A stretch of 64,000 bases of DNA from Octopus vulgaris. Taxonomy: Eukaryota. The stretch is taken from positions 79,050,001-79,114,000 of the forward strand of contig OX597814.1 of assembly GCA_951406725.2 (NCBI GenBank), given 5' to 3'. Below are positions 5,089-56,636 of the stretch, piece after piece (the stretch's first letter is position 1; the number at the start of each line of letters is the position of its first letter). A program made the translations under genes and the position numbers. A model generated the notes under the pieces. It saw only the letters and a program-made list of their open reading frames with translations. It was not told where the DNA came from and made no database searches.

Positions 5089-5395
5089 AGGTGTAGTAGT
5101 TAGGGTATTTGGCTCAGAATCGTAAGGCCATGAGTTCAATTTCAGGCAGCATGTTGTGTCCTTGAACAAGACACTTTATTTCACATTGCTCCAGTTCACC
5201 CAACTGGCAAAAATGAGCAGTACCTGTATTTCAAAGGGCCAGTTTTGTCACGCTCTGTGTCATGCTGAATCTCCTTGAGAACTATGTTAAAGATATGCAT
5301 GTCTGCGGAGTGCTCAGCTACTTGCATGTTAAGTATCAGAAGCAGGTTGACTGGATGAACTGGAACCCTCATCATCGTAACCAACAGACTGCCAG
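5089..5395 (+). mobile_element. SINE family B (tRNA-derived)
   Basis: A/B-box-like head (TAGTAGTTAGGG...GAGTTCAATTTC); body shared with 9659-9975, 10278-10540 and 42042-42360. Confidence 0.85.
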
Positions 5396-5405
5396 TTATA
5401 TATAT

Positions 5406-5680
5406 AACTGGCACTCTGTTGGTTCTGATGACCAGGGTTCCAGTTGATCCAATCAATGGAACAGCCTGCATGTTAAATTAATGTGCAAGTGCCTGAGCAT
5501 ACCATGGACACGTGTACCCTTAATATAGTTCTCAGGGAGATTCAGTGTGACACAGTGTATGACAAAGCTGCTCCTTCGAAATGTGAAATGAAGTGTCTTG
5601 CTCAAGGGCAAAATGCATTGTCAGCAATTCAACTTACAACCTCATGATTGTGAGCTGAATACCTTAACCACGCATCTTTA
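5406..5680 (-). mobile_element. SINE family B, inverted and tail-to-tail with the preceding copy
   Basis: Reverse-complement similarity to 5089-5395 around the palindromic centre TGCCAGTTATATATATAACTGGCA. Confidence 0.85.
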
Positions 5681-5860
5681 CAATTATATAATTATACATA
5701 TGTATATATATAAGTAGTTGAATGAATTATCCTAGTATGGATAATTTGGTTAACCGATACCTGGGTAGCAAATTCACGTCAGAAAAACACGGTTGAAGCT
5801 ACATGCCAAGGGCAGAGATCACGTGCTTTCGTGTGGAAATTTGTGTGTTTTTTAATACAA

Positions 5861-5937
5861 ATAAATGAAAGAATGGAGTTGAACGACGATTTAAAAAATT
5901 TTGTTAAATCGTCGTTCAACTCCATTCTTTCATTTAT
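5861..5937. repeat. Near-perfect 77-bp palindrome (34-bp perfect arms)
   Basis: ATAAATGAAAGAATGGAGTTGAACGACGATTTAA-aaaattttg-TTAAATCGTCGTTCAACTCCATTCTTTCATTTAT. Confidence 0.95.
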
Positions 5938-5940
5938 ATG

Positions 5941-5982
<42 letters not shown>

Positions 5983-10997: not shown

Positions 10998-11465
10998 ATA
11001 AGGTGATGAACTGGCAGAATCATTACTTATTTCTTTATTGCCCCAAGGGGCTAAACATAGAGGGGTCAAACAAGGACAGACAAAGGGATTAAGTCGATTA
11101 CATTGGCCCCAGCACGTAACTGGTAGTTAATTTATTGATCCTGAAAGGATGAAAGGCAAAGTTGACCTTGGCGGAATTTGAACTCAGAACATAATGGCCA
11201 ACGAAATACCGCTAAGCATTTTGCCCAATGTGCTAACGTTTCTGGCAGCTCGCCACCGTTCAAAAGCAGAATCATTACTGTGGTGAGCAAAATGCATAGC
11301 AGCATTTCATCTGTCTTTGCATTATGTGCTCAAATTCCACCTATGTTGAATTTGCCTTTCATCCTTTGTAGGGCAATAAAATAAGTACCAGTTGAGCATT
11401 GGAGTTGATGTAATCAACTTACTCCCTCCCCTGGACTTGCTGGCTTTGTGCCAAAATTTGAAATC
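10998..11465 (+). mobile_element. SINE family C with a related minus-strand SINE nested at 11028-11265
   Basis: Outer TSD AATATTTTCATAATGCC (10981-10997 / 11466-11482); inner TSD GCAGAATCATTACT (11014-11027 / 11266-11279). Confidence 0.9.
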
Positions 11466-18314: not shown

Positions 18315-18519
18315 CATGTGTGTGCATACATATCCACCTGTTACATCTATTTTGCCATGCTAGCATGGGTTAGATAAATGTATTGTTGGAGGTAATAGTT
18401 TTACTGTCAGATGCCTTTCTTGTTGTTAACCCTTTCTTGTTTTTCAATTTAATTTATTCCTTTACTTACTTGATATCTGCCAGGATTTTTTAATCCCATT
18501 TTTTTTCTATATAGACATA

Positions 18520-19366
18520 TGAGGTCTGATTAATAAACATCCAGACTCTTGCCATAGTAATGAAACTAAAGCACACAAAGTGAAGCTGCTTAATAAAGAT
18601 AGACCTTGAACTCTGCTGTGCATGTGCGCTAAGTTTTAATGTTCTAGCTCACTTCTGCTGTTTACAGCAGTGCTTGGAAGGAAGGTGTGTAGTGTGTGAT
18701 TGTCGCATTGACCATGGCAGAGAAAGTTGTCATGGCATGACCTGCTCAGAAGACTATGCAAAGTTGCAGAAATTGCATGGAGAGGAGTGTATGAGCCACA
18801 CACAAGTGTATGAGTGGTTTAGATGTTTCCAAGATGGCCAAAAAAATGTTGATATTGACAGACATTCTGGGAGACCTGAGAAACATATCGTAGATATGCA
18901 TGCAGCTGTGAGGGGAAATCATTGAATCACCATCCATGAGTTACCAGAGGACATGCAAATTAATTACAGTTCAGTTCAGTCCATTAACACTGAAGATTTG
19001 TGTATGAGACACGTGTCTGCCAAGTTTGCGCTAAAACTGCTTTCAGCTGACCAAAGAGACACTTGCACAAGATCTCCTTGATTGTGTCAAGAACAAAGAA
19101 AACTTGTTGAAATCTTTGAGTAGATCTCGCCAAACTTTTGGCAAAATTTGAAGCAGATTCTCTGCTCAACTTTCTCTGTCATGGACAATGCAATGATCAC
19201 ATGCTACACATCTTCCTTCCAGACACTGCTGTAAACAGCAGATGTGAGCTAGAACATTAAAACTTTGTGCACATGCACAGCAGAGTTCAAGGTCAATCTG
19301 TGCCAAGTGACTTCACTCTGCTTTGTTACTTTTGCAACAATCTGGATACTTCTTGATCAGACCATT
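18520..19366 (+). mobile_element. Non-autonomous mariner element with about 200-bp TIRs and transposase HTH remnant
   Basis: TA flanks and long inverted arms. Peptide TCSEDYAKLQKLHGEECMSHTQVYEWFRCFQDG...RHSGRP is a mariner N-terminal HTH. No DD34D domain. Confidence 0.9.
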
Positions 19367-20159
19367 TATATATATATATAAAATAGTAAATGCGAATGTC
19401 AGTGTGTCACACTTTTTCAACTTTACTCCCAGAGACTGTAGCCCAACATATCATACCATTTTGAAATGACGCTGACTCCATGAGTAAATTAAAAACATTC
19501 CGGGTTGAATCTGGATCTGCAATCCTGAAATTCTGGATTCCTAAGTTTTCATTACTATGATTGTTTCCAGTGATTTTTTAATGATAATAATAAATACATG
19601 CAAAGAAAAAAATATCCTAAAATATTTCTCCCTTAACTTACTACAGCTCTAAGATGCTTGCCATATTCATATACATTGGTACTACACCTTGACATGTTCA
19701 TTAACATCAGTAAGAATAAAACTTTGGCAATATAAAATATCTCAAGAGTTTTAATGAAATTCTTTAGATGTCCCTGACAATTTCTCATAACTTTTTGAAG
19801 AGTTATATTTTGTTCCTCATCTTTCTCCTTGTTTTCTTTCTGTCCAACAGACAACTGTGTATTCTTCAGAATACGGCATGAGATGCTACTCCCCAAATAT
19901 AAGTCATTTCTTTCTGTCTTTTGATATGAAGTGATCCTTCTCACTACATATCAGTTAAGTTTCGGTTTTAGATCACACAGATGTTTACATGTCTAAGCCC
20001 AGCCAATCCAGCTATGTATGAAGTTGAAGTATTTCAACCAGTTATTCGAATACATATCTTATACAGTATGTCAGTTTCTATTAGGGATATGACTAGGGCT
20101 GCACAACAACAACAACAACATCAACTATCTCTTCTTTCTTGGATGTATTTACAGGTTTT

Positions 20160-32056: not shown

Positions 32057-33601
32057 ATCATCATCATCATCATCTTCGTTTAACGTCCGCTTTCCATGCT
32101 AGCATGGGTTGGACGGTTCAACTGGGGAAGCCCGAAGGCTGCACCAGGCCAGTCAGATGTGGCAGTGTTTCTACAGCTGGATGCCCTTCCTAACGCCAAC
32201 CACTCCGAGAGTGTAGTGGGTGATTTTATGTGCCACCGACACAGGTGCCAGACGAGGCTGGCAGACGGCCACGCTCGGATGGTGTTTTTTATGTGCCACC
32301 GACACAGGTGCCAGACGAGGCTGGCAGACGGCCACGCTCGGATGGTGTTTTTTATGTGCCACCGACACAGGTGCCAGACGAGGCTGGCAGACGGCCACGC
32401 TCGGATGGTGTTTTTTATGTGCCACCGACACAGGTGCCAGACGAGGCTGGCAGACGGCCACGCTCGGATGGTGTTTTTTATGTGCCACCGACACAGGTGC
32501 CAGACGAGGCTGGCAGACGGCCACGCTCGGATGGTGTTTTCTTATGTGTCACCGACACAGGTGCCAGACGAGGCTGGCGGACGGCCACGCTCGGATGGTG
32601 TTTGTTACGTGCCCTCAGCACGGAGGCCAGTCATTGCGGTACTGGCTACGGTCACGTTCGGATGGTTTTCTTATGTGCCACCGGCACTGGTACCACAAGG
32701 ATACAAATTCCATTGATGTTCATCTATTTTGATTTGGTTCGATTTGATTTGATACGATTCGATTCTCACTTGCCTCAACAGGTCTTCACAAGTGTCACAA
32801 GAAGGAAGGTATGCACAGGTGGACTGACTACGTCCCAGGTAGGGGCCACGGATTATGGCTTCACTAGTCTTGCTGTGTCTTCTCACGCACAGCATACTTC
32901 CATAGGTCTCGGTCTCTAGTCATTTCCATGGTGAGACCTAACGTCCGAAGGTCGTGCTTCACCACCTCGTCCCAGGTTTTCCTGGGTCTACCTCTTCCAC
33001 GGGTTCCCTCAACTGCTAGGGATTGGCACTTTCTCACACACCTATCTTCATCCATTCTCGCCACATGACCATACCAGCGCAATCGTCTCTCTTGCACACA
33101 ACAACTGATGCTTCTTAGGTACAACATTTCTCTCAAGGTACTAACGCTCTGTCGAGTAAGTACACTGACATTACACATCCATCGGAGCATACTGGCTTCG
33201 TTCCTCACGAGCTTACGCATGTCCTCAGCAGTCACGGCCCATGTTTCACTGCCATGTAGCATAGCTGTTCGTACACATGCATCATACAGTCTGCCTTTTA
33301 CTCTGAGCGAGAGGCCTTTAGTCACCAGCAGAGGTAAGAGCTCCCTAAACTTTGCCCAGGCTATTCTTATTCTAGCAGTTACACTTTCAGCGCACCCACC
33401 CCCACTACTGACTTGGTCACCTAGATAGCGGAAACTATCAACTACTTCTAGTTTTTCCCCCGGAAAGTGACAGAAGTTGTTTTCTGCAGATTTTCGGAGG
33501 TCAATGCTCCAGAGCACCTGCCACATACAAAAACTATCTTCCCAGTTAGCCTACCTTTGACATTGCTGCACCTCTTATGTGTCCATAGCTTACACTGGGT
33601 C
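32057..33601 (-). mobile_element. Young 5'-truncated RTE-clade LINE (RT C-terminus, 3' UTR, (GAT)n tail)
   Basis: ORF 32864-33526 has LEVVDSFRYLGD, RIRIAWAKFREL, MLHGSETW, RRLRWYGHVARM and GRGRPRKTW; (CAT)n tail at 32058-32073. Confidence 0.95.
32225..32690. repeat. 63-bp tandem minisatellite inside the RTE 3' UTR (5 near-identical plus 2 diverged units)
   Basis: Unit TTTATGTGCCACCGACACAGGTGCCAGACGAGGCTGGCAGACGGCCACGCTCGGATGGTGTTT; 21-aa periodicity in the ORF track. Confidence 0.95.
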
Positions 33602-43938: not shown

Positions 43939-44077
43939 ATTTTTATTGATATTTAGCAGAAGTAATGGAGTGACTCAAGGTCTGAGAATTTCGTTCGTTG
44001 GTACTTATCAAACTGATAATGCACAAAACTCTCGGACATTGAGTTAGTATGTTTCTTCTGCTAAATATTAATAAATA
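43939..44077. repeat. Small fold-back element with two degenerate back-to-back HHR cores
   Basis: Arms TTTATTGATATTTAGCAGAAG...GACTCAAGGTCTGAGA / TCTCGGACATTGAGTT...CTTCTGCTAAATATTAATAAA. Confidence 0.7.
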
Positions 44078-44213
44078 TGGCTGTGTGGTAAGAAGCTTGC
44101 TTCCCAACCACATGATTCCAGGTTTAGTCCCACTGCATGGCAAGTGTCTTCTTCCTCGGACTGATTAAAGCCTTGTGAGTGGATTTAGTAGACAGAAACT
44201 GAAAGAAGCCCGT

Positions 44214-53738: not shown

Positions 53739-53973
53739 TATAATGTTCACACACATACAAAGCGATGTATACATTTGTACATAAGTACATAGTTATACAT
53801 CCATATAAAGATGAAAATATATCTATACATATCCAAGCAAATATGTATACACAAATAGATACACACACATATATATATCTATACATATATATAGATACAT
53901 ATACACACACTCCTGAAGATTTCTCTTGAATGAAACAGTACTAGTCCTGTAGAAGCTCCTTCTATATAATAAA

Positions 53974-54107: not shown

Positions 54108-54122
54108 TTAATTATCTCAAGT

Positions 54123-54284
54123 ATAGGTGCAGAAGTGGTGGTGTGGTAAGTAGCTTACTTACCAACCACATGGTTCCAGGTTTGTTCCCACTGCATGGCA
54201 CCTTGGGCAAGCATCTTCTATTATAGCCTCGGGCCGACCAAAGCCTTGTGAGAGGATTTGATAGATGGAAATTGAAAGAAGCCC

Positions 54285-54347
<63 letters not shown>

Positions 54348-54535
54348 CTTTGTGTGTCTGTGTTTGCCCCCACCACCATTGCTTGACAACCGATGTTGGT
54401 GTATTTATGTCCCTGTAACTTGGCAGTTCAGCAAAAGAGACTGATAGTACTAGGCTTACAAAGAATAAGTCCTAGGGTCCTTGTTTGGTTAAAGGCAGTA
54501 CTGCAGCATGGCTGCAGTCAAATGACTGAAAGAAA
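54123..54535 (+). mobile_element. SINE family A
   Basis: Full-length match. Confidence 0.9.
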
Positions 54536-54747
54536 TTATAGAATATAGCTAGCTCTTAAAGGGATGTCAGCATCCAAGGTCCCCAGTTTTATCCAGTGTA
54601 TCAATGAAATACTAACAGATGCTAGCTTCACATTGATTTGTTTGAGTATATTATTATTTATGTATAAGAAAAAGAAAATGGAGAAATTGACATACAGACA
54701 TCAATTTATTAAAACAAATTCAATTTCAAACAATATTAAACTCATAG

Positions 54748-54842
54748 AACCTACAATTGTTTCCATGTCCAATTAATTCAAATAAGAAAATTTAATTAAT
54801 GATTCATGCTGAGTATAGTTAATTGGACATTTCCTCAGAGTC
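54748..54842 (-). ncRNA. Type I hammerhead ribozyme motif, long stem II
   Basis: GACT-CTGAGGA-A-ATGTCCAATTAA...TTAATTGGACAT-G-GAAA-CAATTG-TA-GGTT. Confidence 0.65.
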
Positions 54843-55124
54843 AGGACTTGATAGAAAAAGGAACTACATCCCAATGTATTGACTGATCATTGGTAGGCTC
54901 AGCATTAAATTAAGATAAATGTGCGCTTGTGCATTCTAATGTATTTAAAAACAAAACCCGCTAAAACATCGTCTAGGCCACCTAATGGTTCCTTTGTTTT
55001 TCAACACGTAACAGTTTCTTTTAAATACATTAGAATGCACAAGCACATATATCTGAATTTAATGCTGAGTCTACCAATGATCAATCAACACATTGGGATG
55101 TAGTTTCTTTTTCTAACAAGTTCT

Positions 55125-55219
55125 GACCCTGACGATATGTTCAATTAACTATATTCAATATGAATCTTTAATTGAATTTTCTTATTTGAATTAACTGGAC
55201 ATGGAAACAATTGTAGGTT
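55125..55219 (+). ncRNA. Type I hammerhead ribozyme motif, long stem II
   Basis: GACC-CTGACGA-T-ATGTTCAATTAA...TTAACTGGACAT-G-GAAA-CAATTG-TA-GGTT; predicted GUA cleavage after 55215. Confidence 0.65.
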
Positions 55220-55413
55220 CTATGAGTTGGATATTGTTCGAAATTGGATTCGTTTGAATAAATTGATGTCTATATGTCAATTTTTCCATTTTCTTTTGCT
55301 CATACATAAATGATGTGTGTGTGTGTGTGTGCGTGCATGTGTGTTACATAAAACGAGACAACAAAGCCAAGGCAGTGTGAAATTTCTAGGACCTTTTATA
55401 AAGAGAAAGGTAG

Positions 55414-55459
55414 TCTTACAGCTGTTTCAGGGATATAAAAGATATCCCATCATCAGAGA
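55414..55459 (-). ncRNA. Minimal type I hammerhead ribozyme motif
   Basis: TCT-CTGATGA-T-GGGATAT-CTTTT-ATATCCC-T-GAAA-CAGCTG-TA-AGA: intact core, palindromic stem III. Confidence 0.75.
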
Positions 55460-55666
55460 TGACATGAGAGAGCTAAATAGAAGGAAATAGTTGAGTTCAA
55501 TATAAGAGGTTATTTTGGAAAGGGAGAGAAATATGAAGTATAAAAGGAAATACTTTTTTTTATTTTTATTCTTATACTACCCTTTATGATTTCTATATCT
55601 CTACTTTTCCAAAATAACTTGTCATATTGAACTCAACTATTTCCTTCTATTTAACTCTCTCATATT

Positions 55667-55714
55667 GTCTCTGATAATGGGATAACTTTTATTTCCCTGA
55701 AACAGCTGTAAAAC
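55667..55714 (+). ncRNA. Hammerhead motif, core-mutated copy (CTGATAA)
   Basis: GTCT-CTGATAA-TGGGATAACTTTTATTTCCCT-GAAA-CAGCTG-TA-AAAC. Confidence 0.55.
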
Positions 55715-55947
55715 TACCATTCTCTTTATAAAAGGTCCTAGAAATTTCAAACTGCCTTGGCTTTCTTGTTTCATTGTATTTAAGATATACATGCTCACAA
55801 ATGACCCATGTTAAACTCCTCACTCATACTTTTATCAAACCAGAAGTCTAACAGTGGTCCTTCTATAGCACATACATAGACTCAACTGTCTTTTCAATAT
55901 TCTCAATACCAAAACCTTTCATATAAATTCATATATATATATATATA

Positions 55948-55983
<36 letters not shown>

Positions 55984-56255
55984 ATATGAAAGAAGGTTTG
56001 AAAATGCAATTTTAAAAATGCTTATTCACTTGAGTGGTTTCACTTTTTTAGAAAAAGATTGTCAAAAGTAAAATGTAAAGCTTTGTATGAGCTTTGTTGT
56101 GTTAAGTACTGGTTATCACAAAAGTATTAAAATAGATATATACATTCTTTGAAAATAATAAGAAAATGTTAAAAACATTTTACAAGAAAGTATTTAAGGA
56201 AACATTTTGAGTTCAATAAAAATCCTGTTTGTTTGGTAGTATATATATATAGTAT

Positions 56256-56636
56256 AGGCGCAGGAGTGGCTGTGTGGTAAGTAGCTTGCTAACCAACCAC
56301 ATGGTTGCGGGTTCAGTCCCACTGCGTGGTATCTTGGGCAAGTGTCTTCTGCTATAGTCCTGGGCCGACCAATGACTTGTGAGTGGATTTGGTAGACGGA
56401 AACTGAAAGAAGCCTGTCGTATATATGTATATATATATATGTGTGTGTGTGCTTGTGTTTGTCCCCCTAGCATTGCTTGACAACCGATGCTGGAGTGTTT
56501 ATGTCCCCGTCACTTAGCGGTTCGGCAAAAGAGACCGATAGAATAAGTACTGGGCTTACAAAGAATAAGTCCCGGGGTCGATTTGCTCGACTAAAGGTGG
56601 TGCTCCAGCATGGCCGCAGTCAAATGACTGAAACAA

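Follow-up and report, generated by a model that had tools for sequence, protein, structure and literature searches.

The window, by which we mean the whole 64,000-nt (64 kb) stretch of contig OX597814.1 of Octopus vulgaris that was analysed, contains two adjacent fold-back elements carrying hammerhead motifs. The first of these, element 1, consists of two inverted arms at positions 54653-54950 (minus strand) and 55019-55314 (plus strand), separated by a 68-nt spacer (54951-55018) that is likely upstream family sequence belonging to one of the arms. In an alignment of the arms, 267 of 296 aligned bases were identical (90.2%), and a self-BLAST of the window recovered the inverted pair with an E value of 0.0. 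An independent contig from a public run (run X3) spans the centre of the element from 54742 to 55166 with 4 differences and 0 gaps. Consequently, the centre is not an assembly artefact. The first-pass annotation had described a fold-back at 54654..55313 with arms of about 295 bp. The fold-back is real and its two arms lie where they were placed, but the true size of the element is larger, as family contigs run past the left arm to 54543. The left arm, a pLTR-like copy, thus bears a tail-like extension of ~110 nt (54543-54652, minus strand) that is absent from the right arm, the inverted copy. On the right, element 1 is followed by a (TG)n-rich microsatellite (55315-55344) that lies between elements 1 and 2. 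A search for TSDs at the arm ends, at the extended ends and at the ends of the composite of the two elements found only AT-rich matches of 6-8 nt, TSDs of 2-3 nt being below the search length. Decay may also have erased old TSDs.

Both strands of the whole 64 kb were scanned with a strict type I hammerhead descriptor. Three matches were obtained, at +55129..55219 and -54838..54748 in the arms of element 1 and at -55456..55414 in element 2, and all three contain a 6-nt palindromic helix III insert. Thirty block-wise dinucleotide shuffles gave a mean of 0.27 matches of any kind and none with a palindromic helix III. This result bears out the earlier claim that each arm carries an outward-facing hammerhead core. 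The left-arm motif (54748-54842, minus strand) has the sequence of a minimal type I hammerhead, with a 4-bp helix I, CUGAGGA, a palindromic helix III and a predicted cut after 54752; its helix II is 12 bp long and encloses a 42-nt loop. In the right arm (55125-55219, plus strand) the motif reads CUGACGA, the predicted cut falls after 55215, and helix II is interrupted by an A-C mismatch, leaving 11 of 12 pairs, one of them G-U. A short stem I and a 12-bp stem II with a loop of ~40 nt had been reported for both arms; the description fits the left arm, while the right arm falls one pair short. The core had also been said to differ between the arms at the free N7 position alone. This is correct for the core proper, but the base after A9 (A on the left, T on the right) and helix II differ too. 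Comparison with the contigs revealed private changes away from the family in each arm, at 54839 (left) and at 55136 (right, a T). Several contig pieces span the ribozyme with merely 3-16 gap letters, and therefore the 42-nt loop is a trait of the family and not a local insertion.

A G10.1-C11.1 pair has been described as highly conserved in the hammerheads of Penelope-like elements (PLEs) (PMC4209133). This pair is absent from both arms of element 1, where a G precedes GAAA, and from element 2, where the base of helix II is U-U. The motifs of both elements are consequently variants rather than matches to the PLE hammerhead consensus. The Rfam/Infernal hammerhead search that had been proposed as a check yielded nothing at the gathering score in the window, and among 30 weak matches near element 1, with E values up to 10, there was no hammerhead. 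In element 1, helix I of each arm is immediately preceded by a pyrimidine tract ending in AG (54813-54875 region, minus strand; 55092-55128, plus strand), and such a tract also occurs in the left arm of element 2 (55457-55493, minus strand).

Element 2 starts ~20 nt to the right of element 1 and belongs to a different, more abundant hammerhead family. Since self-BLAST gives no similarity between the two elements, they represent different families with the same layout. The arms of element 2 (55335-55547, minus strand, and 55580-55794, plus strand), delimited by alignment and, for the left arm, also by self-BLAST and contigs, are identical at 187 of 212 positions and are separated by a T-rich spacer of 32 nt (55548-55579). 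The left arm has a hammerhead motif with an intact core, a 7-bp helix II and a palindromic helix III insert (55414-55459, minus strand), while the core in the right arm (55671-55710) has lost G8. Beyond the right arm is an extension of ~85-105 nt (55795-55900, plus strand), supported by pieces that reach 55830, 55848, 55864, 55879 and 55900, the last being the end of the stretch examined. The unextended arms of both elements face the intervening (TG)n tract. The core-to-core distance is 291 bp in element 1 and 215 bp in element 2, and the arms end 99 nt and 82-84 nt past the predicted cut, respectively. A weaker hammerhead-like string lies between microsatellites at 53909-53955 (plus strand). 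It consists of CTGAAGA, a 3-bp helix II, GAAA, a palindromic helix III insert of 14 nt and TA; its helix I has 2 bp, it failed both descriptors and it folds worse than shuffles. It is possibly a third, decayed hammerhead family.

We also compared the locus with contigs of four public runs bearing four species labels, matched at 80% likeness. Both elements are dispersed repeats: the family base at 55136 was found in 32-46 contigs per run, and that at 55393 in 80-103. Of the 32 contig pieces listed, 5 cross the left boundary of element 1 (54653) from inside the arm, 4 of them reaching 54543 and 1 reaching 54574, and 5 others run past 55794 in element 2. Three of the pieces that end at 54543 share identical difference counts and may represent one other locus in three species, so that about three distinct loci support the extension. 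In both elements, only one arm is followed by further family sequence. The extensions of ~100 nt could reflect more distant RT start sites, or they could be what is left of a tandem copy. In element 1 the extension stops at the start of a very high-copy repeat, two copies of which are present (~54113-54542 and 56244-56636). This repeat has an internal (TA)n, its contig depth is in the millions, and we take it to resemble an octopus tRNA-derived SINE.

The one-sided extension bears directly on whether element 1 could be a DNA-transposon MITE, in which long terminal inverted repeats happen to contain a hammerhead-like string. In overall shape the element would pass for one, and a mariner-like remnant with inverted repeats is present elsewhere in the window (18503-19383). 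However, the repeats are not terminal, since the family runs ~110 nt past one arm, and this largely refutes the idea. The first-pass annotation had itself raised the contrary case that the arms are TIRs of a DNA transposon with a fixed TSD; we found no TSD at the lengths searched. In addition, the motif occurs far above chance and recurs in a second family. We consider a MITE extremely unlikely. Most likely, element 1 is a Penelope-like derivative that encodes no protein and whose inverted arms are of the pLTR type. It had been called a protein-free, MITE-looking PLE derivative, of which the PLE-type motif and architecture stand and the MITE character does not.

Contig depth was then used to ask about the movement of the hairpin, as its spacer should be about as common as half the arms if it moved whole. 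In all four runs, each step inward from the outer arm, down to the spacer, brought a lower mirror-summed contig depth. In run X2 the steps, from outer to inner, were 12825, 9396, 5233, 4537, 2646 and 1287, with 370 in the spacer. Across the runs, spacer depth was 5-15% of half the outer-arm sum and 16-23% of half the core sum. This gradient fits 5' truncation better than a fixed unit, but it is a hint only, because summed contig depth does not measure copy number or allow parts of a sequence to be ranked, and the AT-rich outer parts may gather loose matches at 80%. On the other side, spacer depth, although low, exceeded that of a single contig in all four runs, and a contig of run X11, with 18 differences over 177 nt (~90% identity), bridges the centre of element 2. 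This contig could derive from the orthologous locus of a related species or from another copy that shares the junction. In a rotifer, moreover, pLTRs alone can drive integration in trans (PMC3846280). These observations would suit a non-autonomous, PLE-derived fold-back that is copied whole, with its hairpin RNA and cleavage serving as a switch or feeding ADAR or Dicer. The divergence of the arms and the predicted folding of their RNA both weigh against such a unit.

Differences between the arms of element 1 are evenly spread, with 10 in the 95 positions of the ribozyme, 10 in 84 upstream and 11 in 95 downstream. The ribozyme is therefore conserved no better than its flanks, and under this divergence the chance of an intact 13-nt core is 0.26. 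The 29 substitutions between the arms include 4 and 3 of the A/G type and 7 and 6 of the C/T type in the two directions, with no A-to-G skew.

Read-through RNA of element 1 would be a long hairpin and, like that of any inverted repeat, could serve as a substrate for ADAR or Dicer. Cephalopods edit RNA heavily. In element 1, self-cleavage had been proposed to compete with the formation of a dsRNA of ~300 bp. In equilibrium predictions, to which all folding figures refer, the hammerhead-shaped fold had an energy of -8.2 kcal/mol for the left arm and -3.1 kcal/mol for the right arm, compared with -12.5 and -13.8 kcal/mol for the best fold of the same 95 nt. Isolated ribozyme regions folded no better than shuffles (z -0.24 and -0.15). 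The full hairpin, in contrast, was predicted at -382 to -390 kcal/mol. Within the plus-strand transcript of the whole hairpin, helix II of the right arm had a pair probability of 0.000, and ribozyme bases paired with the other arm at a mean probability of 0.935. The antisense arm is transcribed before the ribozyme. The proposed competition is thus predicted to be one-sided, with the inter-arm duplex winning outright in read-through RNA. Minimal PLE hammerheads did not cleave as monomers and cleaved weakly as dimers (PMC4209133), and the anole PLE ribozyme needed the protein (PMC11167929). For these reasons a switch between cleavage and dsRNA formation is unlikely. Its helix III being so short, the motif probably requires a partner on the same strand, and the head-to-head arrangement gives none. 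Without such a partner, and buried in a 290-bp duplex in any read-through RNA, the ribozyme is predicted to be inactive at element 1, where it would be inherited pLTR cargo. Taking depth, divergence and folding into account, we think it quite unlikely that the fold-back is copied whole.

Several searches were carried out for a coding link and for relatives. A 54-aa frame downstream (54539-54700, minus strand) gave 0 matches among 12 candidates, 0 Pfam families and no Atlas match at >=0.9. Its sole match among 1.84 billion sequences was a bacterial four-repeat dockerin-bearing protein with 32-39% identity over 31-37 residues, which we attribute to chance. The 58-aa frame over the spacer matched no Pfam family. 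Among 110 frames of at least 70 aa in the window, after removal of low-complexity sequences, 3 had Pfam matches, with no PLE domain and no convincing host exon. Motif scans of viral contigs and prokaryote genomes returned 0 loci; one locus from a metagenome collection proved to be a chance match of 20 nt with no further similarity. In the available portions of the literature on octopus Penelope hammerheads we found nothing on the element 1 family, and a search for literature linking cephalopod A-to-I editing, inverted repeats and Penelope elements found none. Penelope elements and 235 Rfam hammerheads have been noted in the giant squid (PMC6962438).

We believe that element 1 is a decaying head-to-head fold-back, likely the dead-end product of one PLE insertion, and assign this reading a probability of about 0.8. 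Because no autonomous partner was found, we infer the PLE origin from the type of motif and the architecture. In the proposed sequence of events, the RT/GIY-YIG protein of an autonomous PLE would nick AT-rich DNA, and reverse transcription would start within the PLE RNA at a point downstream of the pLTR hammerhead. Synthesis would halt after a few hundred bases, leaving a 5'-truncated copy, and an inverted copy would be added at the 5' junction. The use of two RT start sites would make one end longer than the other. On this scheme the hairpin itself would probably not have moved as a unit.

Published PLE insertions offer close parallels. They have undergone strong 5' truncation, and many are accompanied by a neighbouring truncated copy in inverted orientation and by a tail of 30-40 bp at one end (Craig et al. 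2021, PMC8557442). Head-to-head inverted pLTRs of ~180-220 bp have been described with TSDs present or absent (Arkhipova et al. 2013, PMC3846280), and inverted pLTRs and 3' extensions serve as cues in PLE curation (PMC8969392). Element 1 shares with insertion units of PLEs (EN+) the head-to-head inverted copy, presumably 5'-truncated, arms of pLTR size, a hammerhead in the repeat, an extension at one end, the optional TSD and AT-rich or microsatellite surroundings. It differs from them in that no ORF is left, the extension is ~100 nt instead of 30-40 bp, and the parent was not found. That the arms are head-to-head and extended at one end only, twice in two unrelated families, supports the origin from a PLE insertion.

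The hammerheads give similar support. Dual minimal hammerheads on opposite strands, 100-700 bp apart, have been ascribed to truncated PLEs (Cervera and de la Pena 2014, PMC4209133), and the core distances of 291 and 215 bp lie within this range. The putative ribozymes of element 1 agree with minimal PLE hammerheads in being type I, with a 4-bp helix I, an enlarged helix II, a palindromic helix III and an arrangement in opposite-strand pairs. They differ in the size of helix II (12 bp with a 42-nt loop, compared with 7-8 bp in the Schistosoma families described) and in the missing G10.1-C11.1 pair. In Drosophila Penelope an intron ends at helix I (PMC4209133), and the pyrimidine-AG tract before helix I, which resembles that intron end, may count in favour of the same origin.

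The position of the arm ends can be compared with Poseidon PAc of Anolis carolinensis, in which cleavage occurs at +26 and reverse transcription begins at +111-118, ~85-92 nt further on (Frangieh et al. 2024, PMC11167929). The arms of elements 1 and 2 end 82-99 nt past the predicted cut. Both elements end 80-100 nt downstream of the ribozyme cut site, like the first RT start of PAc, and this also argues for an insertion scar. The PAc tail has been tied to two internal RT start sites, and its ribozyme is dispensable for insertion in vitro (PMC11167929). PAc differs in being autonomous, and its two starts define a tail of 30-40 nt. The even divergence, the loss of G8 in element 2 and the private changes in element 1 are in keeping with a decaying scar. 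Counted against a PLE scar are the lack of a linked RT/GIY-YIG frame, extensions longer than 30-40 bp, the absence of G10.1-C11.1 and the failure to find a TSD.

Alternatively, a hammerhead repeat of other origin, for instance a non-LTR retrozyme monomer, might have been inserted and then turned into a palindrome when DNA repair duplicated it locally in inverted orientation. No link to a PLE protein was found, and retrozyme monomers of 220-350 nt carry type I hammerheads (PMC7229834), both of which would fit. Element 1 shares with non-LTR retrozymes the absence of protein, a size of ~300 nt, the type I hammerhead and a probable dependence on PLEs. However, retrozymes are head-to-tail tandems that yield circular RNA (PMC7229834; bioRxiv 10.64898/2026.07.22.740005), while in element 1 two copies stand head to head, each strand having a single ribozyme. 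The window holds no head-to-tail tandem copy, self-BLAST showing the inverted partner only, and two independent adjacent families share the head-to-head form extended on one side. Moreover, the preprint derives animal retrozymes from the pLTRs of PLEs (bioRxiv 10.64898/2026.07.22.740005). We regard this origin as improbable, and the fold-back left by a PLE insertion remains our preferred reading.

The proposal of a distinct unit with its own regulatory logic was not supported by the analysis: the element is asymmetric, no TSD was found, the ribozyme is not extra conserved, few contigs extend over the spacer, and the architecture is published. Opposite-strand hammerhead pairs are already described (PMC4209133), and no new system is shown here. 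As two families lie side by side, scars of PLE insertion may often give rise to long inverted repeats in octopus genomes. For annotation, PLE palindromes are easily taken for MITEs, and Rfam missed all three intact hammerheads in the window. Curators of PLEs may wish to record two modest variations, in the length of helix II and in that of the one-sided extension. A bolder view is that the hammerhead of octopus PLE families is a variant to which standard models are blind, with a helix II of 12 bp, a loop of 42 nt and no closing G-C pair, that their RT starts lie ~100 nt apart, and that some fold-backs are copied whole as protein-free palindromes. We consider this combination unlikely. If it were true, fold-backs copied whole would seed substrates for long-hairpin RNA across a heavily RNA-editing genome.

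Some other features of the window were observed. Inverted repeats of ~220 bp (79%) at 18503-19383 surround a frame with a weak match to the mariner HTH_48 domain (E 0.00017, below cutoff); this is probably a DNA transposon of the mariner type with an internal deletion. A 228-aa open frame (32867-33550, minus strand) encodes the C-terminal part of a LINE protein and has many relatives with RT domains. Among the best 120 of 216 matches, its closest named relatives come from Octopus bimaculoides, with 79% identity over 43% of the query and 93% identity over 36%. The LINE fragment adjoins a GC-rich tandem array with a period of ~60 nt (32080-32730). Local palindromes with no hammerhead motif are located at 5228-5582, 11084-11427, 5855-5943 and 43939-44078. 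The two longer ones (5228-5582 and 11084-11427) look like adjacent inverted copies of common repeats, and that at 5855-5943 is a near-perfect hairpin of 89 nt.
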